From Paraspadella gotoi (lineage: Eukaryota; Animalia; Chaetognatha): a stretch of 64,000 nt of DNA. Under the pieces are notes generated by a model. That model saw only the letters and a program-made list of their open reading frames with translations, was not told the origin of the DNA and searched no databases. Where the stretch lies: contig JBJCIZ010000207.1 in assembly GCA_051294375.1 (NCBI GenBank), positions 6,731-70,730 of the forward strand, read 5' to 3'. This document shows positions 4,338-61,078 of this stretch, piece by piece (position 1 is the first letter of the stretch; each line of letters begins with the position of its first letter). The position numbers and the translations under genes are program-made.

Positions 4338-5086
4338 CTTAAATCTCAACTCAACGAAACTGAAAGGATTATTACAATGACTTTAACGTAATCGTTGACA
4401 TATCATTAATAACTGATAATATCATAAGGATATATCAATAGTATGGCTGTTTTAAAATGCACAAAAATGTTTTTAAATATTGACACCCGGTATCGTAATG
4501 TGAAACGTATGTAAGTGATGTTACAATTTGAGGGATATAATATGGTTATAAGTAATAGTAATATGGACTAGAAAGAATGACAGTTTTGAGTTAGACAATT
4601 TTGACAAATTATTTTGAAAGCTTAGCTTCACTAGTTGTGAGTTAGGTTTAGAACATGAGTTTAATAACAGAATGCGATTTTAAAATTATTATATCTTAGT
4701 CATTTTATATATAATTCATTTATGCTATGGTAATAGATGTGGTTAACTTATAACTAGTTAATTTAATAACTAGTTTGCTTTGAAATGAAAAAAAAATAAT
4801 ATTTTAAGAAAATTTAAAGTATGTTTTAAAATATTTTAAGAGATAAAAATGAGCTATTCAATTATGTATTAGTATATAATTATAATATGAAATACTATAG
4901 TTTTTAGAATTTTAATCCTGAAACTAATTTTGATATTTTGCATGTTGTCAAAAGTATTGTGAAACCTTTTAATTGGTTAGTTATGTTAACTAATCATGAA
5001 CATAAATACCTTTAAACTCGTGAATCTTCTAAGACTGTCTATAATCCATTGCATTATTAGAATTACATTATAATCCTTTTATAATT

Positions 5087-7264: not shown

Positions 7265-7462
7265 ATTCTTTTATTCTGGATTATAAGATTTTTTTGAAAA
7301 AGATAATATTTTATTGCATGTGCATTGATATATATATATATTAATGCTTCAGGGTTATACTATGCTTCTCTGGTAAAAGAAGTGGTAGTAATATTGATTA
7401 AGTATGTATTGAACAACTGAGTTTTATATTTTATTTCCTAATGAAAAGAAGTAATCAATTTG

Positions 7463-18100: not shown

Positions 18101-18680
18101 TATGAGATTGCGATTTTTATTTTTTCCATTTAAACTCATTTACACTAGGACGATTCCATTGAAACTTGATTTCCAGCTTAATCACTCACTTTCCTACCCA
18201 CATACAAAATTTCAAGTCAATCGCCCCATCCACTCATGAGTAATTGAAGTTCTAATAGTGAAATATATTTTTTTTCCATTTAAACTCATTTCCACTCTCA
18301 CGATTCCATCGAAACTTCATATCCAGCTCAATCACACACTTCTCTACCCACACCCAAAATTTCATTCCAATCCATCCATCCAATCTCGAGCAATTGGAGT
18401 CTTTTGCTAAGGTGGGATGGACGGACATCGTTTTTAGTCCATTCCAAACTTTTGTAACTTTTTATTGCTAAAAGTAGATTTTTTTACTGTATTTTTAATA
18501 GTATAATAATTTTTTCCACATAATTATATAACAAATGTTGCTTACTCTTATTATTACTGCGTAAATTATCACTAACACGTTATAAAAAGCATATGATGTA
18601 AAACAGAATACAAGTGTTCCGTTTTACCCCAATTTAATTTTAGCCATGTAAAAAATAATTGAATTATTTTTTCATAGTAT

Positions 18681-19238
18681 TGAAGAGATAGTAATTATTG
18701 TTTTGTTAGTGCCAGAACCGTTCAATATAAGCAGTCCCCGAGCTTCGGATCAGGCTGTCTTACCGTGTTACAGGCGGGGAAAGTGCCCCGTCCTTCTTAA
18801 CTGCAAGACGGCCACCGGGCTAGAACCTCGGACCTTTCGGTTGGGAGGCGAATAACTTGCCTCCGGCACCAGTGGCCGCTGATAAACGGTTGGTGGATTT
18901 TAGTCCACCATACATCCCCCCCTCCCGTAGGGAGAAGTCTGTTGCATCTCTTCAGTGAATTGTTGTTGTTGGTGGACAGTGTGTCACCAAGTTGAGGCAT
19001 GTCGCCTGTTGTGTTGTTGGCGGAAAGTGAATCGCCCAGGTTGAGGCATGTCGCCTGAAAGTGTGCTGTTGTGTTCGGAAAGTCGGGTCACCAATGAAGA
19101 GATAGTAATTATTGTTACGTGTTAGTGACAGAACCGTTCAATATAAGCAGCCCTGAGCATCGGATCAGGCGTAACACCTGTTACAGGCGGGTTAAGTGCC
19201 CCGTCCCTCTTAACTGCTAGGCGGCCACCGGCTAGAAC
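18681..19238 (-). mobile_element. TRIM family B (tRNA-like module in LTR), copy 1; 5' LTR truncated
   Basis: On minus: partial LTR 19238-19095 ending CTCTTCA; PBS TGGTGACCCGAC (close to tRNA-Trp PBS TGGTGACCCCGAC); ~180 bp internal region; PPT GGGAGGGGGGGA; full LTR TGTATGG...CTCTTCA 18914-18681. Confidence 0.8.
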
Positions 19239-19273
19239 TCACAAATTGTATTCTAATTCACAAACGTCAAGCG

Positions 19274-19310
19274 CTGATGAAGGCTCGAAAATTGTGAGCC
19301 GAAACATGTC
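19274..19310 (+). ncRNA. Minimal type I hammerhead ribozyme (Penelope-like)
   Basis: CTGATGA-A-GGCTC..GAGCC-GAAA-CATGTC, followed by AATAAAATTGTTGT. Confidence 0.8.
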
Positions 19311-19836
19311 TGCTTTCTCACAAATAAAATTGTTGTAAAAAATTCAAAAACTTTGCTAAATTATTTTTTCGAAATAAATTAGTAGTCTCGTCATTAGATA
19401 TTAATATTCCATTGTCCATATTACGTCAAAATTGACTGTGACAGCAGCAGCCGAATGCTGTACTTTAATAATGGAAAGTCAAGTTGGTGAAATAATAAAT
19501 GACCCCAAAAAAATTATAAAATATCTATACACAATTTTTTTATTTTCATTTTATATGTCAGTATTTCCGAATTACCCCTGTCCGAATTACCCCACACTAC
19601 CCTATTAAATGTAAATTGAAGCTGCAACAAATACAACAATTAATTAAATAATTATCTAATTAGCTTACCGCTAATGATCGTGGGCAGATCCTGCATTGTT
19701 TGCTCAATAAATGTTATAATAGCTTGGTTACGGACATATTTCATATTGTGTTATAGTTTATATATATAATAATATATATAGTTTTAACTTTTACTTTCTT
19801 TTTCGATATTTTGTGTTTTTTATCTTTCCCACTTAG

Positions 19837-20205
19837 TATCAATTGAAATAGCAAACAGCTTCCCCGCGGTTGGGTTGGTTTCGCAACCTGGGCAACACTT
19901 GCTACGCCAACAGCGTCATACAGTCTCTTCGCGCTTGTGCCGAATTTCGCGCGACGTGCTGGAAATCGCGCCGCCTCCGAGCACCGGGGCGCCGTCTTCT
20001 TCCGATTTCGCCCTAAAACAGGCGATGCACGACCACGCCCTGGTGGTCAAGTTTCAGGACTATGCTGACCAACCTGGTTTTTTCGCAACAGCCCATCTAT
20101 GACCCACACGCTTCCTTTTTGAATCACGGCCCTCCTTGTTTGGGCAGGGATCGCAGCAGGATTGTTCCGAATTTCTTAAAATACTTTCTCGATCAGCTTC
20201 ACGAG
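19837..20205 (+). pseudogene. Frameshifted duplicate of the USP Cys-box exon (duplicate or read-error copy)
   Basis: Near-identical to 26602-26970, with the same cttag acceptor and GAG|gttcgt donor, but several indels. Confidence 0.8.
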
Positions 20206-21989
20206 GTTCGTTTTTATCGTTTTATTAATTCATTTCTATTTTTAACGTTTTCGTTTGTTTTTTTTGGTTTTTTTTATTGTCGCAATCGCTGAGCGTTGCG
20301 ACGATATTGTAACGCTTTTGCGCATAAGTGCGTCGTGTCTGTCGTTGGCGTTGCGTCGGCGTTCCAAAATATAGATCGCCTTTTTTAGATTAAATTTTGG
20401 GTGTATGAAGCTAAAAATTTATATACAGCTTTCATCATCGATGTGCTTAAAATTGAGTCTGGACAGTTATTAAATATGTTTGGTTTATGTTTTATCAAAA
20501 TAAACAAATTTTCTCTCTTTATTTTTATATTTTTTTCTCTCTCTCTTTTCTCTTTTAATTACATGTCTCTCTCCCTCTCTCTTTTGCCCTAGTCACTGAT
20601 TCATAGGGGAAAAAAAAGTCTGCAGCTGGCTCTGCAGGGGCTTATTCTTTTTCTCTCTTTTCTCCTGCTGCTTCTGCTGCTGCCTTTTGATTCCTTTTTT
20701 TTCTGGGTGCCTCTGCCTGCTGCCGCTGCCTGATTTCGTTCTGAAAAACGATTTGGCTTCTCTCTCTCTCTCTGATTAATTTTTTCCCTCTAAAAACTTT
20801 TTTATTATTGCCATTTATTCCAAATTTACATCCGAGATTTTTGTGGATTTTTTTTCTAAATATTCTAAATATCAATCAGAATAATATTTTTATCGAGCCA
20901 TGACCGCGAAGCCGGTTCAGGCTCTATAATGTTTTAGGTTTGCTTCTTTTGTGACGTGTCGTCGTCGGCGTCACGCTGTTTTTATATAAAAACTACTACG
21001 CTTTTTATAGTTTGGCTGTCACTTACGTTTTTTTTTTAAATAAAATTATTATGAATTATGAAAAGTTTTACAAAAAGTGTGCGAATCATAGTAAGTTAAA
21101 AATTTAGATATGGCTTCTCATCTTGAAATAGCTTTGATATTTTTCTTATTACATTTGGATTTAAGTATTTTTTTGTTTGGATTTCCACTTCATTATGATT
21201 TACTGCAATATGCAAATGAGATTATAGTAACTCATTATAATATCCAAAATTAGTAATAGAAATAGCTTTAATCTAATTTACATATTGCAGTATATAATAT
21301 TGAAGTGAAATTCAAAACATTTTTTTAAATCTTGACACAATGAAAAATGGCGTAAGCGTTACGTTCCGTGCATAAAAAAAATTCACTGTTCAATATTATT
21401 ATATTTCTTTTTATATTTTTGAAACGTTATAGTTTCATATGTCGATATCCAAAAATATCAATGCAAAAATTTTTTTGTTTTTTAGATATAGACCGAATAT
21501 AGGGTGAAAGATGATAAAATTTTTTTAAAAGTTACTTATTCATATTTATTCCTAGAATTGTAATAAAAAAAATTTAAAAAAATAATAGTACCAAATAGTT
21601 AGTATTATGTCTCAAATTAAATTGGAAAAAAAACCTCATTTTAAAAATTTGATCGGAAAGTGGCGGTAACTAAGGCTTACCAATGGCAAACCTCCACGCC
21701 GAATTGTTCTCTCAAATAATTTTTTTTATTTAATACATTTGAAAGGGAAAAAAGAAAATTCAGAATGCAGGTTGTAATAAGGGTAAAGATAATCTGACTT
21801 ACTGACATGATAAACCATAACCTTTTATATCTTGTGGAAATGGGGGCAGTAAAGATATCTAAAAAATTCGATCATTAAGTCAGTCAATGAACCCTTTCTA
21901 ATGGCTATTTACGAGAAATATTTTTTCTTAATTGAAATAGATGATAAATAATAGAAATAAATTCCTTGCTATATTTAAACAAGTTTGAG

Positions 21990-25021: not shown

Positions 25022-25443
25022 CTATTCCACTTCCTTCACCGATTTCCATCGTAAAAGCTTCATATCTCAGCTCAATCACACACTTCTCTCTACCTCACAC
25101 CCATCAAATTTCATTTTCCAAATCCATCCCTCCTAATCACGACGCAATTGGAGTCTTTTGCTTAAGCGTGGACTGGCACGGACATCGCTTCCCTTTAACG
25201 TCCATTCCAAACTTTTGTAACTTTTTATTGCTAAAAATAGATTTTTTTACTGTATTTTTAATAGTATAATAACTTTTTCCACATAATTATATAACAAATG
25301 TTGCTAACTCTTATTATTACTGCGTAAATTATCACTAACACGTTATAAAAAGCATATGATGTAAAACAGAATACAAGTGTTCCGTTCTACCCCAATTTAA
25401 TTTTAGCTATGTAAAAAATAATTGAATTATTTTTTCATGGTAT

Positions 25444-26002
25444 TGAAGAGATAGTAATTATTGTTGTGTTAGTGACAGAACCGTTGAATATAAGCAGTCC
25501 CTGAGCTTCGGATCAGGCTGTATTACCGTGTTACAGGCGGGTTAAGTGCCCCGTCCTTAACTGCAAGACGGCCACCGGGCTAGAACCCCGGACCTTTCGG
25601 TTGGGAGGCAAATAACTTGCCTCCGGCACCAGTGGCCGCTGATAAACGGTTGGTGGATTTTAGTCCACCATACATCCCCCCCTCCCGTAGGGAGAAGTCT
25701 GTTGCGTCTCTTCAGTGAATTGTTGTTGTTGGTGGAAAGTGTGTCACCAAGTTGAGGCATGTTGCCTGTTGTGTTGTTGGTGGAAAGTGAATCGCCAGGT
25801 TGAGGCATGTCGCCTGAAAGTGTTGCTGTTGTGTTCGGAAGTCAGGCTCACCAATGAAGAGATAGTAATTATTGTTACGTGTGAGTGACAGAACCGTTCA
25901 ATATAAGCAGTCCCTGAGCATCGGATCAGGCTGTAACACCGTGTTACAGGCGGGTTAAGTGCCCCGTCCCTCTTAACTGCTAGGCGGCCACCGGGCTAGA
26001 AC
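25444..26002 (-). mobile_element. TRIM family B, copy 2
   Basis: Same layout as 18681-19238: LTR 25444-25674, PPT, internal region, PBS-like TGGTGAGCCTGAC, truncated LTR 25855-26002. Confidence 0.8.
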
Positions 26003-26037
26003 TCACAAATTGTATTCTAATTCACAAACGTCAAGCG

Positions 26038-26073
26038 CTGATGAAGGCTCGAAATTGTGAGCCGAAACATGTC
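26038..26073 (+). ncRNA. Minimal type I hammerhead ribozyme (duplicate of 19274)
   Basis: CTGATGAAGGCTCGAAATTGTGAGCCGAAACATGTC. Confidence 0.8.
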
Positions 26074-26601
26074 TGGCTTTCTCACAAATAAAAATTGTTG
26101 TAAAAAATTCAAAACTTTGCTAAATTATTTTTTTCGAAATAAATTAGTAGTCTCGTCAATTAGATATTAATATTCCATTGTCATATTACGTCAAAATTGA
26201 CTGTGACAGCAGCAGCCGAATGCTGTAACTTTAATAATGGAAAGTCAAGTTGGTGAAATAATAAATGACCCCAAAAAAAATTATAAAATATCTATACACA
26301 ATTTTTTTATTTCATTTTATATGTCAGTATTCCGAATTACCCCTGTTCCGAATTACCCCACACTACCCTATTAAATGTAAATTGAAGCTGCAACAAATAC
26401 AACAATTAATTAAATAATTATCTAATTAGCTTACCGCTAATGATCGTGGGCAGATCCTGCATTGTTTGCTCAATAAATGTTATAAATAACTTGGTTACGG
26501 ACATATTTCATATTGTGTTATAGTTTATATATATAATATATATAGTTTTTAACTTTTAATTTCTTTTTCGATATTTTGTGTTTTTTATCTTTTCCACTTA
26601 G

Positions 26602-26970
26602 TATCAATGGAATAGCAAACAGCTTCCCCGCGGTTGGGTTGGTCTTCGCAACCTGGGCAACACTTGCTACGCCAACAGCGTCATACAGTCTCTTCGCGCT
26701 TGTGCCGAATTTTCGCGCGACGTGCTGGAAATCGCGCCGCCTCCGAGCACCGGGGCGCCGTCTTCTTCCGATTTCGCCCTAAAACAGGCGATGCACGACC
26801 ACGCTCTGGTGGTCAAGTTTCAGACTATGCTGACCAACCTGGTTTTTTCGCAACAGCCCATCTATGACCCGACACGCTTCCTTTTTGAATCACGGCCTCC
26901 TTGGTTTGGGCAGGGATCGCAGCAGGATTGTTCCGAATTCTTAAAATACTTTCTCGATCAGCTTCACGAG
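26602..26970 (+). CDS. USP38: Ubiquitin-specific protease (USP35/USP38 family), internal exon with Cys box
   Basis: cttag acceptor; open 123 codons YQWNSKQLPRGWVGLRNLGNTCYANSVIQSL...SRPPWFGQGSQQDCSEFLKYFLDQLHE; gttcgt donor, phase 0. GLxNLGNTCY and QQDCSEFL are USP boxes. Upstream exons were not identified. Confidence 0.9.
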
Positions 26971-28114
26971 GTTCGTTTTTATCGTTTTATAATTCATTTC
27001 TATTTTAACGTTTTCGTTTGTTTTTTTGGTTTTTTTATTGTCGCAAACGCTAAGCGATATTGTAACGCTTTTGCGCATAAGTGGCGTCGGCGTTGTCGTC
27101 GGCGTCGGCGTTCCAAATTATAGATCGCCTTTTTTATGATTAAATTTGGGTGTATGAAGCTGATAATTTATATACAGCTTTTCATCATCGATGTGCTTAA
27201 AATTGAGTCTGGACAGTTATTAAATATGTTTTGTTTATGTTTTATATAAATAAACAAATTTTCTCTCTTTTATTTTTATATTTTTTTCTCTCTCTCTTTT
27301 CTCTTTTAATTACATGTCTCTCTCCTCTCTCTTTTGCCTAGTCACTGATTCATAAGGAAAAAACAAGTCTGCAGCTGGCTCTGCAGGGGCTTATTCTTTT
27401 TCTCTCTTTTCTCCTGCTGCTTCTGCTGCTGCCTTTGATTCTTTTTTTCTGGGTGCCTCTGCTGCTGCCGCTGCTGATTCGTTCTGAAAGATCTTTTGAT
27501 TATTGCCCCAACATATTCTTCCAAATTTACATCCAAGATTTTCGTGGATTTTTTTCTAAATATCAATCAGAATAATATTTTTTTTATCGAACCATGACCG
27601 GCGAAGCCGGTTCAGGCTTGATTTTGTTTCGGTCAGCTTCTTTGTGACGTCGTCGTCCGTCACGCTTTTTTGTATAAAAACTACTACGCTTTTATAGGTT
27701 TGGCTGTGACTTACCGGTTTTTTTTAAATAAAAATTATTATGAATTATGATAAAGTTTTACAAAAGTGTGCGATCATAGTAAGTTAAAAATTTAGATATG
27801 GCTTCTCATCTTGAAATAGCTTTGATATTTTCTTATTACATTTGGATTTAAGTATTTTTTTGTTTGAATTTTCCACTTCATGATTTACTGCAATATGCAA
27901 ATGAGATTATAGTACTCATTTTAATATCCAAATTAGTATATAGAAATGCTTTAATCTAATTTACATATTGCAGTATATAATATTGAAGATGAAATTCAAA
28001 AAAAATTTTTTAATCTGTAATAAAAATGGGAACTCAAAGGAACCTTTTAATGAGAAGCTATATCTCAATTTTAATACAATAAAAATAAAATCTTTTACAA
28101 GCTGCGATTGTTTT

Positions 28115-29900
28115 TCAATAATGCTTTATGTTTTTGTTCTTGTTTTCATATTTTTTTGTTTTTGTTTTTACGCATTATCTTTGAACGTTTTATTAATATT
28201 GTTTTTCGTTTATGCTTTATATTTTTTGTTTTTGTCTTTGTTGTCATATTTTTTGTTTTTATTTTTACGCATATATCAAAAAATAAAAATTACAAATTTA
28301 AAATAAAAACTATTGCTTCTCTTGACATTTGACATTTTTGTTTTTAGTTTTTTCCGGTTTTATGATTTTTACATTTGATCCTTAAACGTTCTTGAACGTT
28401 ATTTTTTATAGTTTCTTATGATTAGTTCATAACATTTATTAATGATTTTAAACGTTAGTGTCTTTTGTTTTTATTGAATTTCAATATGTAGTTTAGTTTT
28501 ACTTGTTTTCCAGTCTTGACGTTCTTGAACATTATTTTTTATAGTTTCTTATGAATTAGTTCATAACATTTATTAATGATTTTAAACGTTAAAAAAAATT
28601 TTAGAAAAGATGGTGTCTTAGTGTCTTTTGTTTTTATTGAATTTCAATATGTTAGTTTAGTTTTTACTTATTTTCCAGTCTTGAACGTTCTTGAACGTTA
28701 TTTTTTATAGTTTCTTATGAATTAGTTCATAACATTTATTAATGATTTTAAACGTTAGTGTCTTTTGTTTTATTGAATTTCAATATGTAGTTTAGTTTTT
28801 ACTTGTTTTTCCAGTCTTTTAAATGTTAGGGTCTTTTGTTTTTATTGATTTCAATACATAGTTTAGTTTTCCAGTCTTTTACACTATTACTGTGTTTATG
28901 ATTATGTCAATACTGTTTTTGGTATTATAAAAAAAAAAAAAAAAATATTAGTGTTATTATTATTTATTATTTATTTATTTATTTATTATTTATTATTTAT
29001 TTATTATTATTATTTCAAATTTTTTATTAGTGTCTTTTTCTGTTGATCTGAGTGCTTATATTTATATATATATTTATATGTATATATATATATATACTGA
29101 TTATAGTTTGATATTTCTATTCATAGCAAATGTGGTCCCTCTGCCTTTACTTTAACATATTAAACACTTTTATAATGTTTTAGTTTATTTTTTGCTCTCA
29201 TGTTTTCATTAATGCTTTATATTTTTTTGTTTTTGTTCTTGTTTTCATATTTTTTTGTTTTTGTTTTTATGCATTATCTTTGAACGTTTATTAACATTGT
29301 TTTTCGTTTATGCTTTATATTTTTTGTTTTTGTCTTTGTTGTCATATTTGTTGTTTATTTTTACGCCATTATCAAAAAATAAAAATTATAATTTAAAATA
29401 AAAGCTATTGCTTCTCTTGACATTTGACATTTTCGTTTTTTAGTTTTTCCGGTTTTATGATTTTACATTTGATCTTTGAACGTTCTTGAACGTTATTTTT
29501 TATAGTTTCTTATGTATTAGTTCATAACATTATAATGATTTTAAACGCTAGTGTCTTTTGTTTTTATTGAATTTCAATATGTCGTTTAGTTTTTACTTGT
29601 TTTCCAGTCTTTTAAACGTTAGTGTCTTTTGTTTTTATTGAAAAAAAAAATTGCCTTTTTAGAAAGATAATTTTAATAAATTAGTTTTTACTTTTAAATA
29701 AAAAAAAAATAATGTTGCTTCCTTTTTATACTTGATGTTTTTTTGGTTTAAAAATTTGAATTTTAAACGTTCTTGAACGTTATATTTTATAGTTTCTTAT
29801 GAATTAGTTCATAACATTTTATTTATGAGTCAATTTAAACGTTAGTGTCTTTTGTTTCTGTTGAATTTTAATAGTTTAGTTTTACTTGTTTACTGCTTTC
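28115..29900. repeat. T-rich direct and tandem repeats (~28115-28520 repeated at ~29210-29640; recurring TTGAACGTTCTTGAACGTT units)
   Basis: Visible repetition of TAGTTTCTTATGAATTAGTTCATAACAT and related blocks. Confidence 0.8.
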
Positions 29901-30984
29901 TAGTTTTTTACACTTTCTTTCTTTCTCTCTCTCTCTCTCTCTCTCTTTATCTCTTTTTTTACAAAAAAAAAATTTATTCACTTTTTTTTTCACCACCGTC
30001 ACTAGGCGACGAGTAAACGAGTAAACTAGTTCCGGCTCTCTCTCTCTCTCTCTCTTGTGTGATCGTTCTTTTTTTGAAAAATTATGAATATGTTTTTCCT
30101 TCTAAAAACTTTTATTATCGCCATTTATTCGGGGCTTTTTTCTCAATACAAAATCCCAAATTTACATCCGAGATTTTCGTGGACACATTTTATAAAAAGT
30201 AAAGAATAACTTATAATGACATGCATTGTCACATGTAAATCAGCTAATGTGACCTATTATATATGTGGCACTATTGCTGAATAATATAATTACATGCATC
30301 ATATTTTTATTTATTATTGTAACTTTGGACCGGTTGGCCCACTATTGGCAAATTATATCTAAAATAGGAGTTGATAAGAGAAATATAGTCAAATTAAACA
30401 TACTTTTTTGTTTTTCTTAAATTATTAAATTTATAAATATTTTTAGTGTATATATATTAATCATTTTTATCTTTTTTTTAAATAATAATTATTTGAGTTG
30501 TGATAACTATTTATAAATTAATTAAATATGCAAATATAAAAATTTGACCTCGTCTGGTTTCTTCCTAAAAAAAGAACAATTTTTTCTCTCTCTTTCTCTC
30601 TCTCTCTCTTTTTTTTTCCTTCTAAAAACTTTTTATTATCGCCATTTATTCCGCGCTTTTTTCTCAATACAAAAATCCCAAATTTACATCCGAGATTTTC
30701 GTGGATTTTTTGTTACAAAAAAAATTATTCACTTTTTTTTTCAGCACCGTCACAAGGCGACGAGTAAACGAGTTCCGGCTCTTCTCTTTCTCTCTATCTG
30801 TCTCTTTTTCTCTCTCTCTCTCTTTCTCTCTATCTCTTTTTTTTTTAACAAAAATAATTTTTTAGTCACTTTTTTTTCACGACGAGTAAACGATTAAACG
30901 AGTTCCTGCTCTCTCTCTCTCTGTCTTTCTTCTCTCCCTCTCTCTCTCTCTCCCTCTCTCATTCTCTCTCTCTCAATAACTCAT

Positions 30985-31360
30985 CGCGTCAATGAATGAC
31001 TAGCATCGCATCAATGAATGACTATCGATGATCATGATACTATCATCGCATCATGAATGACTATCATCGCATCAATGAATGACTATCATCGCATCAATGA
31101 ATGACTATCATCGCATCAATGAATGACTATCATCGAATCAATGAATGACTATCATCGCATCAATGAATGACTATCACCATCATGATGACTATCATCGCAT
31201 CAATGAATGATTATCATCATCAATGAAGTACTATCATCACATCAATGAATGATTATCATCGCATCCATCATTTGTTATCATCGCATCAATCCTTTGGTTA
31301 TCAATCGCATCAATATTGTTATCATCGCATCAATATTTGGTTATCATCGCATCAATATTG
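30985..31360. repeat. 22-bp minisatellite GACTATCATCGCATCAATGAAT
   Basis: Period 22 (31059, 31081, 31103...), decaying at the 3' end. Related array at ~59439-59560. Confidence 0.9.
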
Positions 31361-32389
31361 TTACATCAAAGCAGGCTCGATCCTATTGCTTTTAAGATTT
31401 TTTCAATATATATTTACTTTATTATTTTACTTTACTTCATTTTACTTCACTTTAGTCTTTACTTCATTCGTAGTCTGATTCAAGTTTCACTTTGTCTTGT
31501 CTTTGTCTTTGTCTCTGGTTGTTACTACCTTCGGGGCATGGGACCTGGATGCTTTCTCAAACTTAAAATATTTCGCCAAACTCCAAGCAACGAATGCAGG
31601 CTTAGATATCGGCAAAACGTCTAAGCACTTTTTTTGAGAGACTTTCTGTCTGCCTTCAGCGCGAGAACGGGACCTGCTCGCTTCCCGAAGTCCCGTGATT
31701 GAGTTGCCGTCTCATGTGGACGGAGTTGCTTGACTTTGTCTCCCGATCTCTTCTTCTTTTTCATTTTTATCTTCCCCTTATTTGTTCTCGTTTATTGTTG
31801 ACATAAGTTATTTTTGCAACCATTCCCGCAATTATTTGTTTGCTCGGTTTTCTTTCAGAAAAAAAAAAAAAAAACTTTGTCTTTTGTCTGGGAATGTTGA
31901 TAGTGTTTAGAGAGGTCGCATTCGATCAAACTGCTCGCTTATGCGGGCTAAAAGTAAAACAATAATGTCAATAATAATAATAAATAATAATAAATAATAA
32001 TAAATAATAATAAATAAATAAATAATAATAATAAATAATAAGTAAAACAATAATGTCAATAATAATAATAAACAATAATAACAACAATAAAACAATAATG
32101 TCTCTCCAGACTTAGCACTTGCTAAAAATTAAACTCGAAAATAAGTTATTTTACTGTTTTATATTTATTATTCTTTTTTTTTTTCTTTCTGTTTATAAAT
32201 TAATTTTCTTTTCTCAAATTTGATTTTTTTAGTATCAAAATTTGTCGTTAATCTAGATTTTTCTTATGCAATTGCGACCATCCCTTATGCTTTTAAGATT
32301 TTTTGACAATAAACGAATTTGGCTTAATTCATTCCATTATCTTGGTTTTCGATTTTTCAATTTTTTCAATAATATTAATTGGAATTTAG

Positions 32390-34097
32390 GTGGAACGCCG
32401 TACTTTGTCAGAATCGAACAAAGACTCTGCCTCCACAATAAAGCCAGACGCCGACGCTGGTTGCGCAATCAACAATGAAGCCACCGAGGTAGTTGGCTCA
32501 AAGCGGACGACTGTGTCGCGTCGATTTGGCGGTAAGCTCCTTCATTCCTTCTCCTGTCACGAGTGTGGAAACGTCTCTCGTCGCGACGAAGTCTTTACCG
32601 ATCTCCCTCTCGCCTTTGTCGACGCCGCGGAGCAGGAGCCGGAGTCTCAAGGCGTTGATGGCTGCGTCATGAGCGGCGACGGCGGCGGCGGTGACGAGTC
32701 TCAGGAAGAAGGACGACCTTCTAAGGTTTTGCGAAAAGAAATGGCAAAGGTGGAGAAAGAAGAGATAGGAGAGAACGTCATCAACTCGGAAATATTTTAC
32801 GACGCAGTAACGCATTCATCTTCTGAAATTGACGTCGTCGGTGTAGACCAAGAGTTGGCCTCTTTTGCGCCTCCAAAGCTCGACGCCGCGTCTTTTGATC
32901 CTTTCGCCGTCTCAAAGAAACTCGAGGCGATTTGGGCGACGGGTGACGCCGACGATACAGGCTTTCGTCGGTGCTGGGATCGCGCCGAAGAGGAGGAGCC
33001 TATGGAAGTGGGAAGACCGGAGGCGGCGTTGGGAGACGATAATCTAATTCCCTCGTCGACGCCATCACCAACTCTCGGAAACGCCGGAGTCTTTCGTCCA
33101 AGCTTTTCCGCTCCATTAAAAGCCGCGGGGCCCGCCGTGGCACTCGCCGCCCCCGCCGCTCCCTCGGTCCCGACGCTGCCTCATTCGTATTCTCTTCAGA
33201 AATTACTGTCATCCTTTTTACGGCCAGAGACTCTTCAGGGAGATAACGCCTACCAATGCGAGCGCTGCGGCGGTCTGCGCAGCGCCACTCATCGTGTCGG
33301 CGTTGCGGTGGCCCCTCAATACCTCATCTTGACGCTGCTGAGATTCAAATTCGACGCGAAAACGCAGACCAAATGGAAAATCAGCGCCGCTGTAGAGATT
33401 CCCGAGGAATTAGAGTTGCCTATCGAAAATGAAGAGGCGACTAGAAAAGAAGATGGAGAGGGAGACACCTCCAAGATCTCTACCTCATCTTCGGTCTCCT
33501 ACCAAATCCTTTCTGTGATCGTCCACGTAGGTGGCTCAACCGACTCTGGTCATTACTACACATACGTTCGGACTCGGCCCGAGGCCGACGTCGTCATGGT
33601 TCCTGCCAAAGAGGGCTGGGTCATGTACAACGACTGTTACGTTCGCGGCGTCAACCCCATTGATATTGCATAGCCGTTTTCTTTAAGCGGGAAGCGGTGC
33701 GCCGGGGCCCTTCTGCCGCCAGCCGAGACACTCCTTACGTTCTCATTTACGTGCGGAATCTGTTGGAGGCTTCGACGCGAGTAGATCTGCCTGGATTCTC
33801 GATGGCGCCGACGCCGCGCGACTCTACCCGTGAACTCGTTGCCTTGAAAACCTTCAGTGGCTCAAAGCACGGGAGCGCTCCAAGTCGGGCGTCGGGATTA
33901 GCCATTTTGCTCAGCGGCCGCGTGCCGTCGCGTTTGCGCATGCCTGCCGGAAACTGCCTCCCGGGGGACCACGATGGCCGAAGGACGACGATGAAGACAA
34001 GGGTGGAGGGGGCGGTGGTCGAACGGGCAGAGGGGGCGGTCCATGCGGAGGGCCCACCTTTGGCGGCTTGGGAAACGGACCGAGATTTGTGTTTTAA
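32390..34097 (+). CDS. USP38: USP35/USP38-family terminal exon (His box and C-terminus); apparent frameshifts after 33673
   Basis: tttag acceptor in frame with the previous exon. CHEC...CERC zinc finger, APQYLILTLLRF, HVGGSTDSGHYYTY, YND, then TPYVLIY and a Gly-rich tail ending GNGPRFVF* (TAA 34095-34097), resembling the vertebrate USP38 end (..GRLVF). Confidence 0.85.
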
Positions 34098-34146
34098 TTA
34101 CTTTTCCTGTCTGTGTTAAGTTTCTTGTTTTATTAATATTATTATC

Positions 34147-34190
34147 TTGAGGGGTATTGAAGGCATGAAGAAATAGAGGGAAAATAATGG
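34147..34190 (-). mobile_element. Short 3' LTR fragment of the TQT-ORF element, just downstream of the USP stop
   Basis: Reverse complement CCATTATTTTCCCTCTATTTCTTCATGCCTTCAATACCCCTCAA matches the LTR end. Confidence 0.8.
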
Positions 34191-34817: not shown

Positions 34818-35369
34818 AGATTTTTTCTTTACTCGATAAACTGGAGGGAGTGGATATCTCTCAAACTAGGAGTTGGAATCAGCTCAGCTATGAGTAATAA
34901 ATGCAGGAAGTTTAGCTTGTGTCCCCATTGGACGGATTTTTAAAAATTTAAAAAAATTGCGCTCAGCACCCTAAAAAATGTTTGTACAATATTTGCTTTA
35001 GCGCAGTTATTAATGAAGCTTGCCCTATCATTTTTTGCTCATAAATACTCCGAGACGAGACCTACATAATGATGTAATAAAATTTTTGAATTAATTTTAT
35101 TCTTTTGGTTTCAATAATTAATTTAGTCAAAATAATATTCCAAAGTCAGGGGCAAGATAGCTTATTTATTAAATGAATGGATAATTTTTATATTGGTTGT
35201 ACCAATTTCCTTCAAAAGTATTCTGAAAATATCGAAGGTAATTGTTTCCTTTTTTATACAAAATGATACATTGAACAAGAGAAGTTTTAATAAATAACAA
35301 ATAAAATCTTTAAAAAATATTTTAAATACCAAAAATATTTTTTCAATATTATAAAAATATATTATAGTC

Positions 35370-37213
35370 AGAGGAGGATTGAGCCTGCCGTCCAATTCTC
35401 CTCTTCCTCTTCTTCTTCTTTCCTCCTCCTGCCCCTCAGTATATTTTGTCTAGCGATACATTCTCTCGTTTCTACTCTTCGCGAAATATACCATTATTTT
35501 TCCCTCTATTACTTCACGCCTTCAATACCCCTCAAGTGGCGCCTTCTTCGCGGCTCGATACCCTACACCCCGTGGATTAAGTTTCCTGTGCAAACCCTCA
35601 GCAAAAAAAAAACCGCGGAAATTCTATAAAAAAAACTATCTTCCTTCACTAACAACCAAAAACAAACTTAAAAATAAACAAAATTTACAAACTCCCATCT
35701 AAAAAAAAAGATACCATTTTACAAAATAACTATTAAAATCACTAAAAGAAATTGCATAATTTTAAAAACAAAACCCTACTTGATATTTATTACAAGATAA
35801 TTTTCTCCTTTCTCTTCACTCTTCGTCAACCAAAACTTGGAATTTTCAAAATCTAAACATCAAACTTTGAACCTGGCAACTAAAAACAAGCTCGCTTCAA
35901 CTCTCTCTCTCTCTCCAACTAAAAATGGCGAAAGCTAAGATTGGACTTTAACCTCTTAAAGAAACTGAAATAGCAAGTCCCTTAATGTGGAATATAGAAT
36001 AGACACTCCCTGAAAATGGCAGCAATCAACTTTAAAGATCCAATCAGTTCTGATGACCTCAAAGGAGAATATATTGGCATCTTGGAAAATCTGATGAATT
36101 TTTCTAAAAGATTGCATACTAATAATGCAAACCCACGAATTCTGGACAAGAATATAATGGATCTACTTGCTTTGGTGCAGAATACACATATGTCCCTTCT
36201 GCCTTTAAAAACCCAAACTGTCTCCACCCCAACTCAAACCTATTTCACCCCAGCCAATGCTTCAACCCAGACCACAAAACCCAAGGCTAGTTGCAATAAA
36301 TCAACTCAGACTAAAATACCCTACTCAACCTCCTCTTCCCAAACTACCCAAACTGCCATCATTTCTGATTCAGTTTCAACACAAACCATTGTTGCCAAGA
36401 CTGATTCTCAAGTACAGACCGACCTACCAACTGTCAAAAACTATGCTAATGATGTGAAAACTCAAGCGGGAAAAATCCAAGGAGAAACTTCATTTGCAAG
36501 AATCAACTCAAACAAGAATCAACACAAAAATCAAGCCTGCTCTTATCAGTCTCCGGTCAAGAAATGGGAAACAAAATCAAGAAATGAAAGAACTGGACCC
36601 TGGAAAGAATACATGATCCCTCAAACCTGCGCTGAAAAAATCTATATCCCCCCTCATCGACGTGTTCCTCAAGACCAAAGAAGGCAACCAGTTTTTGGAA
36701 AACGCAAAAATACTTGCAAAAATAACTGATGGAAATAGACTTACGACCATGGTTGCGCCAGATGTTTGCTGCATTTTTGGCTCAGACTTTACCATTGCCC
36801 TTTTTTTAAGAATCAATATCAGTCATGGTGCAGTGGCATAACTTGTCAATGACTGTGACATAAATTAAAAATAAACTTTTAATCATTTAAATAGTAGCTT
36901 TGATAGAAATCCAATAGTTTTAGTTTGTGACTTCTCTCACTTTTTTAGTTCTGTGTCTTTGTTTTTTAGTCCAGAGGGAAGCATGACGATGTAATGCCAC
37001 GCCATTGGGGGCCTGGACATTACATCTTGGTCAAGAAGGGGGACGCAGAGGAGGATTGAGCCTGCCATCCAATTCTCCTCTTTCTCTTCTTCTTCTTTCC
37101 TCCTCCTGCCCCTCAGTATATTTTGTTTAGCGATACATTCTCTCGTTTCTACTCTTGGCGAAATATACCATTATTTTTCCCTCTATTACTTCACGCCTTC
37201 AATACCCCTCAAG
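35370..37213 (+). mobile_element. Complete 1.84 kb non-autonomous LTR element with one ORF
   Basis: 167-bp direct repeats 35370-35536 and 37047-37213; PBS-like TGGCGCC..GGCTCGA at 35537; PPT AAGAAGGGGGA 37033-37043; flanking duplication ATAGTC (35364-35369, 37214-37219). Confidence 0.9.
36016..36729 (+). CDS. Element-encoded protein with TQT motif array and YIPPHRR motif (function unknown)
   Basis: 237-aa ORF, homologous in three copies. The true C-terminus is probably ..LMEIDLRPWLRQMFAAFLAQTLPLPFF via an indel near 36720, as read in frame in ORF 308-502. Confidence 0.75.
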   Translation: MAAINFKDPISSDDLKGEYIGILENLMNFSKRLHTNNANPRILDKNIMDLLALVQNTHMSLLPLKTQTVSTPTQTYFTPANASTQTTKPKASCNKSTQTKIPYSTSSSQTTQTAIISDSVSTQTIVAKTDSQVQTDLPTVKNYANDVKTQAGKIQGETSFARINSNKNQHKNQACSYQSPVKKWETKSRNERTGPWKEYMIPQTCAEKIYIPPHRRVPQDQRRQPVFGKRKNTCKNN

Positions 37214-38096
37214 ATAGTCTTAAAACTAATTAAAATATTTAAAAACTATAAAGGGTTTGAAAGCGGACATCATGTTGATTCCAAATCTATTTTTGTTTTT
37301 AAAATTTGATTTCTTGATCTTGTTTTACAGACTAATACATTTGTAAAAATTAAGAAAAATGAATTTAAAACTAACTTTGAAAAAGTAATATCTTCTTGCT
37401 ATTGAAATTTTAATTGAAGGATAAGATTCGCCAAAGATATCAAGGGAAGAAGTGTCATTATTTTTTTTTATGAAAAAAGAATAAGATTTTTTTTAATAGG
37501 CGGCTGAGGCAGAGGTTTTTCGAAGATTAGGATTTAGTAAGGACTTAAATTTTCTGCAATATTGAGTACAACCTCACAACATTTTGAGTTCACCTATCTT
37601 TTTCTTACTAACATTGCACAACCAAAGTCAGAGTTCTAATGCAGGCATAATGAGTAGACCTTTCCATATATGAAAAGTTTTTAAATCAAAAAACGTTTGT
37701 TTAAAAGTTGCCCATTAAGGTGGATTTAAAACCTTTATTTTTTTCCTATACCTATTACATATTTCTTCAATATCACTACAACAAAAATAAATATATAGTA
37801 CGAGATCACGCGCATTTTTTAAATTTTATACATTTATAACAATCGTATTATATTATTAGCTCAGAATATTGTCTTAAGACGAGCAAAAATATTAAAATCA
37901 AAAGGATTAAACAATTTTAATAGTAGATCATGAACAGGCTTGTACCTGTGAACATTTTTAAATAAAAAAAAATTAGTTTTCAATTTTTGCATTAGCCCAT
38001 ATTTATACATAGTACTCTCCATAAAAAATGTCAAAATTTTAAAATGATTTTTTCTTATTTTTGAGTACAGATTTGAATTTCTCACAAAAAGTGAAG

Positions 38097-39975: not shown

Positions 39976-40785
39976 CTAATTAAAACTTTTGTTTTCTTTT
40001 AAAGCAAACCTTTATAAGTAAGTAAACTATGGCAACGGGGGACATGTATGATACCCTGCTGGCGCTCAGGGCTTTGGACCTGCAGTGACCAACCCATGTC
40101 ACTGGCGTGTTTATGCTGACACCATCACACTTTAAACAGCGTGACCCACGGTTGGTGAACGAGTACTTAGTAAGGCGTAGTGAAAGTTACCTACAAAAAT
40201 TCTAAAAGTCAATTATGAACAATATACCATCAGTGAACATTAATTTGTAAAAAAATTTTTTTTTTAAATTTTCGCAGTAGGCTATATTTATACATAGTAC
40301 TACTATCCATATAATATCGAAAATTTTCAAAATAGGCTTTTCTTAATTTTGATTGCTGATTTGAATTCCTCGTCAAAAGAAAATATAAATCATTTTTAAA
40401 AATTCTTTCATTAAGTGGGTTAAAAATTTAAAAAACTATATTTAATATATAAAAAATTAATTTTCAGCTTCAAATATAGCTTTTTCTAATTTTTGACCCA
40501 CTTAATGAAGGAGTTATATTTCTTTTTATCAACTTTTTATGACGAATCCAAATCTGCAAAATAATCTTAGAAAAAACTGTTTTGAAATTTTAACATTTAT
40601 TGGTTTAAATTTTAAAATTTATTAAAAATTTTTTTTATTACATAAATGTTCATTAGTATAATGTTGTTCGTTCCTCACTTTTAGAATTTTAATTGATGCG
40701 ATAAACCTTTCGTTTTCGTTGTTATTAGGATTTAGAGAAAAACAAAGTTTTTAATTGTGGTATAACGAATTTAATTGGAGATACG

Positions 40786-52158: not shown

Positions 52159-55100
52159 TCATTCGGCGAAAATAAGATGAATTGCATCAATAGCGATCCC
52201 TGCATTTGCAGAAGCAGAGCGGCGAGCAGCCAAACGGGTAAGAGGCGGTCCGCAGGCGGGCATGGCACGGCGGTCCAGCGTTCTCATTTTGTCAACCATT
52301 TTGATGAGGCTCTCTCTGGACAAGTTTGAACGAATAAGATGATCTCCAGGGAATACTTTAAATTCACCAGAGACTAGAGAATGGCACTTGAATGAATTCG
52401 TTGCTATTTTGGCAACTATTTCCCACGCATCTTGATCCACTTTCCTTTGAATTTTTTGTGGAGAACCAAGGAAAAATGAAGTTTTCTTCTTCATGACTAG
52501 ATCTCCAATTTTTAGATGGATGTAATATCTCTCGGATTTTCGCGTTTCCGGCGTTGAAGGAACGGTTCACATCATGGCGCAAAATGTCATTCTGAAGTCT
52601 TCTCCTTGCTTCCAATGTTTCTCTCACACTCTTTGCCGGCGCCGTCACGCCACTAGATGGCAGTTCTCCGTCCGTGTCAAACAGGTTTGCAGATGAACGA
52701 CAAAAATGGACGTCAGAGGGACTTTTTCCAGATAAAATATCTGTACATGTTGAATTGTAAACAACTCTAGCTTCGCCGACGAGAGAATGAAATGGAAGAT
52801 CTGGTTCATGTTCTTGTAATTTGAGCATTATTCTCGTAATAGAATTGATGAATCTCTCTACTTTAGACTGACATCTTGACACATTTGCCAATCCATGTAT
52901 CAACTCCACTCCATGTTGACTAAGGATATTGGCTGAGGGAGTGTTTGATTTACAAAGAGCATTGTCAGCATGGATGCGACGAGGTAAACCACTTCACTCT
53001 TGTCTTATCTTCATTAGACAATCCACTACTTCTTTGTCTTGCGTAGATTTTGTAGGATATGCCCATGCATATCTGGAGAAGAGGTCCACAGCACAAAAAA
53101 TGTACGGAAATGCAGCATCATTGTGGAAGGGTCCTTAAAAGTCAATTGCAACGGAGTTTCCTGGCTCCATGGGTGTCTGCATCCCTCCTTCATCTCTGGA
53201 ACCTTTTTGGTGATTGATCTGAAGGCAGATTGCACAATTTCTGATGTATGTAGAAATCTTCTCTCTCATTCCTTGAATGTAGTAACTTTTTCCCAAAGTT
53301 TTTAATGTTCGATTCACTCCAGCATGAGTTGCTGCAGGATCACGATCTCCAAACAACCAACAATGATCAAAACCTTGATTGACCGCAGCAAATTTTGTTT
53401 CATGAGTCTTACTCAAAAGACGATGAAATTCCATCTCAGACACAACAAGGAGAAACTTGATTCCTCCATCAGGGGCTGTCCACAGCGCGCAGTAGCACTC
53501 CCTGATTACTGATGATGAAGAGACTGCGGTGACGAAGGAATGCCAAAGTCCCCATAGATAAAAGCAAAGCTTCATGTTATCTGGTAACTTCCTCTTTTCC
53601 TTCAAATAATCAATTTTTTCACTCACATCAGGCGCCTGTTGCATTTCCAAGATTTTCTGGAGAACTTTGTCTGCAAAAACTGGAACTTCCTTGGCTTTAA
53701 TTGGCTCATCCACAACTTCGTCAACTTCCTCAGTGTGGCCTGAAGCTACATCTTTATCTGAGAGTTGAACAATTGAGACTGTCCAAGGGGCAAGAAGACC
53801 TTTCCACTTCTTGATTTCAGCTTTCTGCGACGCCTTGTCACTCTTACTGTGAGTAGCACCATTTGAAGAGATGGAATAGCTCCTTTTGTCTAATTCCTTC
53901 TCTATTAGACTGTCCGGATCCCAGTCATCTGATGAAACACTCTACTTTGTCACCGACTGCCGACGGAGGGTGTGCCGGATCAGTGGAATCATTTGCCGGA
54001 AAATGCGTCCACTCAGTGTCATCCATATCGCGGAGTCGGGTCCCGGCTGGACATTTCAATGGGGAGAAAATAGAGACAGAGATAAGAGCTTAACAAAAAT
54101 TGAGATAATTCATCTGAAATACTTTTATTCAGAAGTGATTCAAGCGGAACTTTTTCTCCTTTACCATTCAGAATCCTGCCTTGGAGAAATCTTCTGTCAT
54201 AAGTACCATCTCCTCCATCATTTTCTTCCCATCTGCTCACAACATCAGCTGGATTTGCTCTAGATTCAATAAAAGAAATCTTGAAGTCAAAACTCTGAAG
54301 ATAGATGATTCTTCTCACAAATGCATCATCGACTTTGTCCAGGTTAGCCCATCTTCTCAACACTTGACTATCAGTATAATGTAGAATGGTCTCGCAGTGA
54401 AAAATAGCTAAATCTTTGAACTGTTCATAAAGAGCCAAAAACTCTTTATAAAACGTTGGCAAACTTCTTTTTGCGGGAACCAAAGTCTTTGAATAACATT
54501 GGACAATGTAGAGTTGCCTCTTGTCTCCATCAGCGCCTGCTGCAATCTCTGCTGAAGTTGAAAAAGTTTTGCAGAATCACAGATCCAATGGCATGCTGAG
54601 AGCCATCTGTGAGCACAATCAGCTCATCTTCAAGCTTGGTTGAGGGAACTCTCACCTCCCAAGCTTTTCATCCAGAAGTACACTTTTTGCTTTTTCAAAT
54701 GCTGTTTTGTGGATTTCCAGTGGCTTGAACTTGTCTTTCCTTTTGCTAAATCACGCAATGGCCCAAGTGCTTCACTCAGCTTAGGGTTGCAAGCTAGGAA
54801 CCAAGAGAAAAAAGCAAGCTTAGAAATAAGGTCCTTCCTTGAGTCAGGAAAGGTGAGTTTAGCAATCTTCTCATCTTCTCCCCTGACATTCCTTTTGCTC
54901 CTTCTGAGACTTCATGCCGAGAATCCTCAGTTTGGTCCACTCCCATGTCACTCTTCTTGGCAGACAAAAGCAGGTTATAGGTTGAGCAAATAGCTAGGTC
55001 AGAGGTAGATCTGCATCCAGATGTTGCTTCATGTTCTTGGAGTAGGTAGATGTGTCATCAATGAAGGGCTTGCATCTTTTGTGAATGTCAAAAACATTCT

Positions 55101-55560
55101 CCACCCATTGTTGAGCATACCCAGGACCAACACTGATCCCCATTGGACATCTGAGGTATCTGAAGAACTTTCCCAGAACAAAGAATCCAGTGAACTTTTT
55201 AGATGAATCTTCATCCATCAACAGTTGATGATAGAATCCGGCAGCATCCAAGTTGGAGAAAACTGTGTAATCACCACTGGCAATTTCCCTCCTGAACTCT
55301 TCCATTTCAGGTAGTGGGAAGTGATGAGGCATCAGAGCTTGATTCATTTTTCTGTAATCAACCACCATTCTGCTCTTGGTGACCTCTCTCTTCTCTGTAG
55401 CAACATATCTGCTCTCCAGAATAGTGGATGTTTGACAGCCAACTATCATCTGAATTTGTCATCTCAGTAATGACTCCTTGTTTGAGAAGCTTGTCAATAT
55501 GCTGCTTGATAAAGGGATGATCTTTGCTCAACGAGGTTTCAAAATTCTCTTCACTTTTTG
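52159..55560 (-). pseudogene. pol: Ty3/Gypsy pol: RT - RNase H - integrase, frameshifted
   Basis: RT: RMVVDYRKMN, FSNLDAAGFYHQ, RCPMG, PFIDD. RNase H: VLTDGS, YKEFLAL, YTDSQ, NPADVVSR. Integrase: HAGVNRT...IRNCAIC, AIDF, HADN, SKVER. RT-RH-IN order is Gypsy-type. Confidence 0.95.
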
Positions 55561-58829: not shown

Positions 58830-61078
58830 CTCTTTTTTTTTTTTTTTTCTTACAAAATAATTTTAGATATAATGGTGGTTCACTATATGTAAAAAAACGG
58901 AATGCCGAACAGGGCGCGAACCCGGGTCCTTGGGTAGAAGAATAGCTCACGACTACGTGCGGCGCCAATAAGTACTGCTGATTCTTTAACGAGTAAAAGG
59001 GGCTGTAGGGCTTCTCTCTCTCTCTCTCTTTTTAATTATTATATATCGCTTCTTCTTTCTCTTCTCTTTTTCTCTGCAGCGCTGTCTCTCTCTTTCTCTC
59101 TCTTTTTTCTCTCTCTGTGTCTCTCTGTCTCTCTGTGTGTCTGTCCTATCTGTCGCCGATGCTTTTGATGTTATCGTTTGTTTTTTGAAAAATTCTGATT
59201 ATTTTTTTTCCTTCTAAAAACTTTTTATTTATTGCCATTTTATTCCGCGCTTTTTTTCAAATACAAAATCCCATATTTTCATCCGAGATTTTCGTGGATT
59301 TATTCTCTTTCGTTTCTCTCTCTGCTCTCTTTTTTTCTCTCTCATCTCTCTTCTTTCTCCTCTCTCTCTTTCTCTCTCTCTCTCTTCTCTCTCTCTTCTC
59401 TCTCTCTTTACTCATACACGCATTTTGTTTGTTTTATTGACTATCATCGCATCAATGAATGACAATCATACGAGCAATGAATGACAATCATCGCATCAAC
59501 TGAGCTATGCATACGCAGTGAATGACTATCATCGCGCATCAATAATTGATTATCATCGAATCATAATCATCCTATTACATCAATAAATTACTATTACATC
59601 AATCAAGTTAGTATTACCTCTAATCAATTACTATACAATCAACATTCGTTATCGCATGACATTTCGTTTTTTTTCCCGGTTTTTTTCATTAATTTTCTAT
59701 GATAGTGGGCTCTGGCTCGATCTTGAGTCCTTTTTTAAAGATTTTTTTATTTTAATGTCTCCTTCTTCTCTCTCTCTCTCTCTGCTCACTCTCTCTCTTT
59801 CTCTCTCCACTCTCTCTCTTCTCTCTCACTCTCTCTTTCTCTCTCTCTCGTCTCTCTTCTTTTTATGCAATAGCGACGATCCTTATGCTTTTAAGATTTT
59901 TTTAACTTGCATCATTTTTTCAAACTTGCATAAATTTTATTCAACTTGCATTCCGTCAAAACTTTATATCTAGTTTCTCACTCACTTTCCTACCGGCTCA
60001 CAATTTCATCTCTCAATCTATCATGGGTTAAAATAAATAAAAAGATTCAAGTAAATGTGACTCATATTTTTTTCATTTAAACTCATTTCCACTGGTACGT
60101 TTCCACTGAAACTTTATATCAAGCTTCGTCATACGTTTTCCTACACCACACAAAAATTTTCACTCAATCTATGCCATCCAATTATGATTAAATTGGAGTA
60201 TTTATTGGTTAAAATAAGTAAAAGATTTTAGTAAATTCGACTTATGTTTTTTCCATTTAAACTAATTTCCACTCACGACGATTCCATCGAAATTTTATAT
60301 CCAGGCTTTATCACAACAACCTTTCCTAACCACACACAAATTTTAATTCCAATCCAACCAGCAATCACGAGTTATTGAGCTTTTTGGCTAAGATGGGACG
60401 GAATGGACGGATTGATTGACTAATTAAATTAATTATTAGATTAATTTATTTACTAATTGATTAATTAACTGATTAATTATTTGATTTATTAATACATCCT
60501 GCAATAACATTTAATATAAAAGGAAAAAGAAGCATAATCAATTAGTAAAACAGGTTTTTGTTTTTTTCCATTTAAACTACATTTCCACTCCAAACTATTC
60601 CATCGAAACTTTGATTTCCCTGTTCAATCACACACTTTCCTACCCACATACAAAATTCCAAGGTCAATCAGCCCATCCAAACTCATGAGCAATTGGTGTT
60701 CAAATAGTGAATATTTTTTTTTGTTTTTTTCCATTTAAAACTCATTTTCCACTCGCACGATTCATCGAAACTTAATATCCCAGGCTCAAATCACACACTT
60801 ACCTATCCACACACAAAATTTCATTTAAATCCATCCATCCAATCACACGAAGTAATTGGTGTTTTTGCTAAAGGTGGGACGGACGGACGGACGGACGGAC
60901 GGACGGACGGACGGACGGAACATCAATTTTTTTTGCATAATTTATCATAATTTCGATGTTCTGACATGATATAAGTGTGTGCCCGACAATATTGAGGGGG
61001 CGGACCGGACGGACCGAAAAAGTGAGTTATAAAGTCAGTTTAGAGGGATCTGCTGATCAAGAGAATGCCGACTAAAAA
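58179..61078 (-). mobile_element. Full HINE family 1 element inserted in Gypsy pol
   Basis: 5' TTTTTAGTCGG..CAGCAGATCCC at 61078; (GTCC)n at ~60877-60918; ~180 bp subrepeats; 3' GGCAGATC..GACATTTGTTTGCTCAAACTTGTT at 58179. The same 3' end occurs at ~17915 and ~23876. Confidence 0.75.

Follow-up and report, generated by a model that had tools for sequence, protein, structure and literature searches.

The 64,000-nt stretch of Paraspadella gotoi DNA analysed here (the window) contains a complete long terminal repeat (LTR) element without pol, whose sole open reading frame (ORF) encodes a 237-residue protein bearing an array of TQT triplets of the type that anchors LC8-binding motifs. The TQT feature is real and is probably under selection, and we read the element, with a probability of roughly 0.5, as a helper-dependent retroelement encoding an RNA-binding accessory protein that is likely dimerised by LC8. 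Judged from the sequence, LC8 binding is the most likely single reading of the array, as yet unproven.

Structure and insertion of the element

The element occupies 1,845 nt of the plus strand (35369-37213), in agreement with the complete 1.84 kb LTR element described in an earlier sequence-only reading of this DNA, and is bounded by two LTRs of 168 nt each (35369..35536 and 37046..37213) that differ at 4 of 168 positions (2.4% divergence). Immediately outside them lies a 5-bp target-site duplication (35364..35368, repeated at 37214..37218), which can be read just as well as 6 bp if the first C of the element (35369) is given to the target. Contigs of the sequencing runs X2, X5 and X7, three of the four runs examined, carry the empty site, in which 35363 is joined directly to 37214 with 1,850 nt skipped and six letters fitting either side; the element is thus a true insertion with a 5- or 6-bp duplication. 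A primer-binding-site-like sequence (35537..35547) starts with TGG straight after the 5′ LTR, although the 64-kb window holds no tRNA gene against which it could be matched, and the folding of the LTR/primer-site junction was no better than that of shuffled sequences (z = -0.22). The A-rich leader of 479 nt (35537..36015) contains two short upstream ORFs, neither of them in the frame of the main one (ATG at 35925, 8 codons; ATG at 35985, 5 codons), and a polypurine tract of 11 nt (37033..37043) ends 2 nt short of the 3′ LTR. Paired direct LTRs, a target duplication within the 4-6 bp range and a polypurine tract are the features by which LTR retrotransposons are recognised, and a single ORF between LTRs with pol absent is the plan of the TR-GAG elements. 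Domain and motif searches of the element found no reverse transcriptase, integrase or CCHC zinc knuckle, bearing out its description as pol-less, and an Rfam search of the element returned nothing credible. A hammerhead ribozyme in the terminal repeat is the mark of a Penelope-like element or a retrozyme; no hammerhead match appeared in Rfam down to an E-value of 1, and this assignment was rejected.

The LTR termini, CAG...AAG, do not follow the TG...CA rule, which is common and not universal. Troyka elements also have ends other than TG...CA, and their termini resemble the inner LTR borders found here, namely CG preceding the 3′ LTR and TGGCG following the 5′ LTR, as far as the termini are described in PMC12440569. 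At the outer ends of the present element, however, the CG letters are missing, and the duplication is 5-6 bp instead of 3 bp (PMC12440569); lacking both the CG...CG termini and the 3-bp duplication, the element was not assigned to Troyka. Its unusual ends may mark an undescribed integrase lineage.

Parts of the element were present in 9 of the 11 sequencing runs listed (three studies), each run holding at most 0.47 of the element's words. In three DNA runs, the LTR bins (35435-35521 and 37088-37174) were 9-12 times deeper than the ORF bins, an excess that hints at many solo LTRs or at an LTR common to other families. The LTR-to-ORF depth ratio was 0.41 in run X9, guessed to be RNA, against 9-12 in the three DNA runs; summed contig depth is no copy number and cannot rank the parts of the element. 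A very high-depth short repeat adjoins the element at 35087-35260; in the DNA runs its depth exceeds that of the ORF by a factor of hundreds.

A non-random TQT array in the sole ORF

The ORF at 36016..36729 (plus strand, 237 aa) was the single ATG-initiated ORF of at least 100 aa on the element's strand, as the sequence-only reading had it, and all of the triplets named there were located as claimed: six TQT (aa 66, 73, 84, 97, 111 and 122), one SQT (aa 108) and one VQT (aa 133), within an S/T-rich stretch that is predicted to be disordered (36211..36420). The successive anchors are spaced by 7, 11, 13, 11, 3, 11 and 11 aa.

The array is non-random and exceeds what chance produces. Six TQT triplets arose in none of 200,000 residue shuffles of the whole protein and in 2 of 200,000 shuffles of aa 61-140; when any tripeptide occurring at least six times was counted, which corrects for choosing TQT after the fact, the figures were 1 in 20,000 and 51 in 20,000, respectively. 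The background across all six frames of the window was 21 TQT in about 128,000 codons. Within aa 60-150, threonine follows 8 of the 10 glutamines. No DNA tandem repeat was found beneath the array, and the anchors are encoded by differing synonymous codons.

Predicted structure of the protein and the absence of a recognisable gag

The single-sequence AlphaFold2 model of the whole protein had a mean pLDDT of 47 and comprised two helices and nothing else. The helices (aa 12-35 and 40-59; 36049..36192; pLDDT ~58-71) form an N-terminal pair that is possibly a dimerisation module, as judged from the model. From aa 60 onward the pLDDT fell below 50 and no secondary structure was predicted, a weak indication from the single-sequence model that thus places the anchors in predicted disorder. 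The C-terminal tail (aa 151-237; 36466..36726) is basic, with 19 K/R against 6 D/E and a pI of 10.3; it lacks a CCHC motif and shows a bipartite-NLS-like pattern from aa 215. No signal peptide, membrane or hydrophobic segment was found in the 237-aa protein, and since it has no hydrophobic segment it is neither an envelope protein nor a mucin-like secreted one.

Homologue searches gave no relatives. Pfam returned nothing above the cut-off for the whole protein or its parts, a PDB sequence search found no match to the 237-aa protein, word-indexed searches were blank among both proteins of near length (129 candidates) and longer ones (883 candidates), and HMMER detected no homologue among 1.84 billion representatives. 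Likewise, no relative occurred in metagenome and viral contig collections, the sequence was absent from the ESM Atlas, and Foldseek with the low-confidence model returned nothing at an E-value of 0.001 or better. The earlier reading had held that clear identity to an ordinary gag fragment would count against it; no such identity was found in sequence, Pfam domains or fold. A gag domain of the kind that defines TR-GAG elements was thus not detected in the ORF, and from its sequence the protein is not recognisable as gag.

These results bear directly on the alternative that the protein represents a gag, or the N-terminal portion of a gag, that has diverged very far and comes from an unsampled LTR lineage of TR-GAG-like organisation, with the TQT stretch as a spacer that might still bind LC8. 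The ORF does lie where gag is found, downstream of the primer site and leader, and its product has a basic C-terminal tail; a capsid domain, however, needs more than two helices, whereas only two were predicted here, a CCHC motif is missing, and the Pfam, PDB, HMMER and Foldseek searches were all without a match. Non-autonomous single-ORF elements of similar plan have been described in plants, and foamy virus Gag has been reported as an LC8 binder, to judge from a title cited in PMC7828637. On balance we regard a diverged gag as unlikely.

Quality of the putative LC8 motifs

LC8 is a dimerisation hub that takes part in many dynein-independent complexes, and with multivalent clients it builds two-chain ladders, as presented in PMC10046861 and PMC7861614. 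An anchor alone does not suffice for binding: in the text of PMC6607443, 16 of 53 candidate peptides in one set and 7 of 19 in another bound LC8, many peptides with a TQT showed no binding by themselves, among them S/T-rich mucin-like sequences, and weak sites could bind once presented on a dimer. The spacings of the present array, mostly 11-13 aa, are compatible by analogy with LC8 dimers arranged side by side.

The flanks of each motif were scored by positional rules taken from the text of PMC6607443 (positions -4 to +2). In this copy, motifs 97 and 111 (2 of 8) passed all of these text-derived rules, four (84, 108, 122 and 133) failed one, and motifs 66 and 73 failed two each; flank quality is thus mixed. 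Motif 133 has two favoured flank residues besides its one failure, and motif 97 resembles the site of BIM, a listed LC8 binder (PMC6607443). At aa 72 and 125, both failing flank positions, nearly all contigs of the family differ from the window, and these failures accordingly belong to this copy and not to the family. A complex prediction combined two copies of aa 104-138 with four LC8 chains, for which a substitute matching Drosophila LC8 exactly was used. Without folded controls, it scored 0.23 and 0.06, short of the 0.34 mark, and counts neither for nor against binding.

The same motifs could serve a decoy or sponge that drains LC8 from host complexes, or misdirects it away from them, transposon silencing being an example. 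The array offers up to about six non-overlapping candidate sites, the tail carries an NLS-like pattern, and the Drosophila piRNA silencing complex is dimerised by LC8 through the TQT motifs of Panoramix (PMC10046861, PMC7861614). Panoramix, however, is reported not to occur outside insects; moreover, a sponge would need high expression and would give no reason for the helices or the basic tail. We consider such a decoy quite unlikely.

Copies of the element and probable selection on the frame

The sequence-only reading had counted three copies in the window; one of them is complete, as described above, but the other two proved to be truncated. The second copy (39596-38103, minus strand; ~93% identical) is 5′-truncated, lacking the 5′ LTR, and its 3′ LTR is incomplete; it has seven frame-breaking indels and one stop within codons 1-232, and two of the eight anchors are lost. 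The third copy (626-1, minus strand; ~92% identical) consists of the 3′ part only and is cut by the window edge, so that it retains just the last third of the ORF, without the TQT stretch. Compared with the complete copy, pN/pS was 0.92 for the second copy (26 and 8 changes over 222 codons) and 0.75 for the third, and the 11 private changes listed for the complete copy comprised 7 replacement and 4 silent ones. We read these near-neutral differences as drift or decay after insertion, consistent with the 2.4% LTR divergence.

Contigs from seven different runs represent several diverged lineages of the element's family, and their variants gave another picture. The analysis was made on the best-supported 40 of 68 variant rows, from four runs over 261 nt (36184-36444); the rows are non-independent, and no tree underlies them. 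Among these 40 rows, 21 were replacement and 19 silent, against a neutral expectation of about three to one, which corresponds to a ratio of 0.37-0.44 (p = 0.002-0.009, the range reflecting transition weights of 1-3). At the eight anchors, the best-supported 40 of 68 rows included five replacement and nine silent changes (ratio 0.19-0.23). All five replacements fell in motif 97 or the SQT, whereas the five rows at anchors 66, 73, 84, 111, 122 and 133 were all silent. Several lineages lack an intact motif 97, which looks best of the eight, and one common lineage lacks the SQT. The 32 rows that were common to at least two runs and not fixed, leaving out five rows fixed against the window and three from one run, divided equally into 16 replacement and 16 silent (ratio 0.34). 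Third codon positions accounted for 17 of these 32 shared variants and for 14 of 28 distinct sites (p = 0.05). Taken alone, the contrast between anchor and non-anchor positions was non-significant (Fisher p = 0.19; 0.09 without the SQT), as was selection outside the anchors (p = 0.09-0.18).

The pattern of indels was examined in the same contigs. A single indel row was among those listed for 36184-36444, and gap letters numbered 3 in 2,369 bases of 13 ORF pieces versus 46 in 1,435 bases of 9 non-coding pieces, a comparison covering 31 of the 32 listed contig pieces, with the 9 border-straddling ones set aside; counted by piece, and with the pieces overlapping, the contrast had p = 0.07. Contig pieces at 82-84% identity were gap-free over 149 and 333 nt. 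As judged from these sequences, variation within the family suggests that the reading frame is under purifying selection, and the anchors more strongly so. A dN/dS near 1 with random decay of the ORF had been named beforehand as evidence against the LC8 proposal; the family-level ratio of ~0.4, and of ~0.2 at the anchors, speaks for constraint, but the window copies (0.92 and 0.75, the second copy being frameshifted) do not.

The selection data also inform the remaining alternatives. One is that the stretch is an S/T-Q cluster for ATM/ATR-type kinases, or a site for some other partner, which tunes the protein to DNA damage, LC8 not being the point. The nine S/T-Q dipeptides within aa 66-150 are enough for an S/T-Q cluster domain by its density definition. 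The kinase consensus, however, does not require a threonine after the glutamine, which 8 of the 10 glutamines nevertheless carry, and VQT 133 has no phospho-acceptor before its glutamine and yet shows only silent change, so that this alternative appears quite improbable. Least probable of all is that the frame stays open by chance, in a non-coding element rich in A and C, and that base composition gave rise to the TQTs. The composition of the strand (A 38%, C 25%) does favour Thr and Gln codons, the window copies are near-neutral with one frameshifted, and no homologue was found. Against this, composition-matched shuffles almost never yielded the array, stops break up the other frames of the same strand, and the third-position variants and gap-free diverged pieces described above likewise speak against a chance frame.

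Three further observations concern the family and its insertions. A 45-nt piece of an LTR 3′ end lies at 34143..34190 (minus strand); its terminus (34146) is the same base as that of the complete copy (37213), and ATA follows in both, which suggests a target preference on the basis of two cases only. At 34249, eight nucleotides match the LTR end, no more than chance would give, and the match was dismissed. A contig of 2,249 nt from run X7 matches only 35439-35609, that is, the 3′ half of the LTR, the primer site and the first 70 nt of the leader, with 23 differences from the element; it is a candidate sister family or helper of the TQT element.

Proposed function

The helix pair, the LC8-type ladder and the basic tail together suggest a dimeric RNA-binding accessory protein, which is the reading we favour. 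As pol is absent, the element must borrow its capsid and enzymes, and an autonomous helper would supply the capsid, reverse transcriptase and integrase. The 237-aa protein would be made from the element, its N-terminal helices would seed the pairing of two chains, and several LC8 dimers would then bind in register along them, stiffening the linker. The basic tails could hold the element's own RNA for export, protection or packaging by the helper. Such a benefit to its own RNA would explain why a helper-dependent element has kept a coding frame, which is to be expected only when the product serves the lineage that encodes it. Among the roles offered by the sequence-only reading for an LC8-recruiting protein, a dimerising scaffold fits best, but transport is weaker, because LC8 serves as a dimerisation hub in many dynein-independent complexes, and nothing observed here speaks for a sponge.

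The further proposition, that the lineage dropped gag and pol and kept an orphan multivalent LC8 client for particle assembly or for competing with LC8-dependent silencing, has in our estimate slightly less than an even chance. Non-autonomous LTR elements are thought to be either non-coding or gag-keeping. If the proposition is true, the element would represent a class of non-autonomous elements with a host-factor-recruiting protein of their own, and the retention of a non-gag protein by selection implies that the element profits from it in some way for which no explanation has been given. No use of LC8 or TQT, and no LC8 motif array, in a retrotransposon protein was found in the open literature searched, within which an orphan LC8-client element would be the first such case. 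The nearest cases were foamy virus Gag and the Panoramix complex of the host. In flies, LC8 is already known as a host factor in the struggle with transposons, through Panoramix (PMC10046861, PMC7861614), and an LC8 motif array in a transposon protein would place the same hub in the service of the parasite as well.

Comparison with known systems

Viral LC8 binders such as rabies P and Ebola VP35 offer a first comparison and carry one or few sites. Like them, the present protein belongs to a parasite and has LC8-type motifs, motif 97 being of the K-S-T-Q-T form, but it differs in having up to eight anchors and in being encoded by a pol-less LTR element. Rotavirus VP4 and HPV E4 are also among the LC8 binders in Table 2 of PMC6607443. 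ASCIZ, Panoramix and Nup159 share with it several TQT-type anchors in a disordered stretch beside a predicted helical segment, as these proteins are outlined in PMC10046861, PMC7861614 and PMC6607443; in contrast to them, the protein described here is encoded by a mobile element, shows no sequence homology to them and has flanks of mixed quality, and its LC8 binding is only predicted.

The TR-GAG elements, in their published outline, resemble this element in having a lone ORF flanked by two LTRs, in lacking pol and in mobilisation in trans. They differ in that no gag domain is detectable in the present ORF, which encodes 237 aa of mostly predicted disorder, and in that TR-GAGs are plant elements, whereas the host here is an animal and the ends are not TG...CA. 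For the proposed action on RNA, CERV of the Caenorhabditis elegans element Cer1 is a precedent without LC8, likened here by description: it comes from an LTR retrotransposon of an animal and, as an accessory protein, acts on the RNA of that same element, but Cer1 is autonomous and the exons of CERV are common with gag (PMC10309623, main text). The terms "dynein" and "DLC-1" do not occur in that main text.

Neighbourhood of the element

A broken LTR-retrotransposon pol lies at 52160-55460 (minus strand), with the order reverse transcriptase, RNase H, integrase and with frameshifts. No flanking LTR pair was seen around it, and it has no blastn match to the TQT element; no helper for the TQT element was found. 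Upstream of the element, a split USP35/38-like deubiquitinase gene occupies 26791-33673 (plus strand; Pfam UCH, best PDB match USP35), and its 5′ region of ~3 kb is apparently duplicated (18304-21332 versus 25044-28016, 92% identical). Together with the broken pol, this gene points to a eukaryotic and likely animal host. The window further contains a 22-nt minisatellite array at two sites (30943-31356 and 59364-59606), imperfect palindromic elements of ~280-310 nt, possibly MITEs (10820-11113, 27787-28072 and 40321-40591), and an AT-rich block at 5086-10201 with direct and inverted duplications of a unit of ~2 kb.
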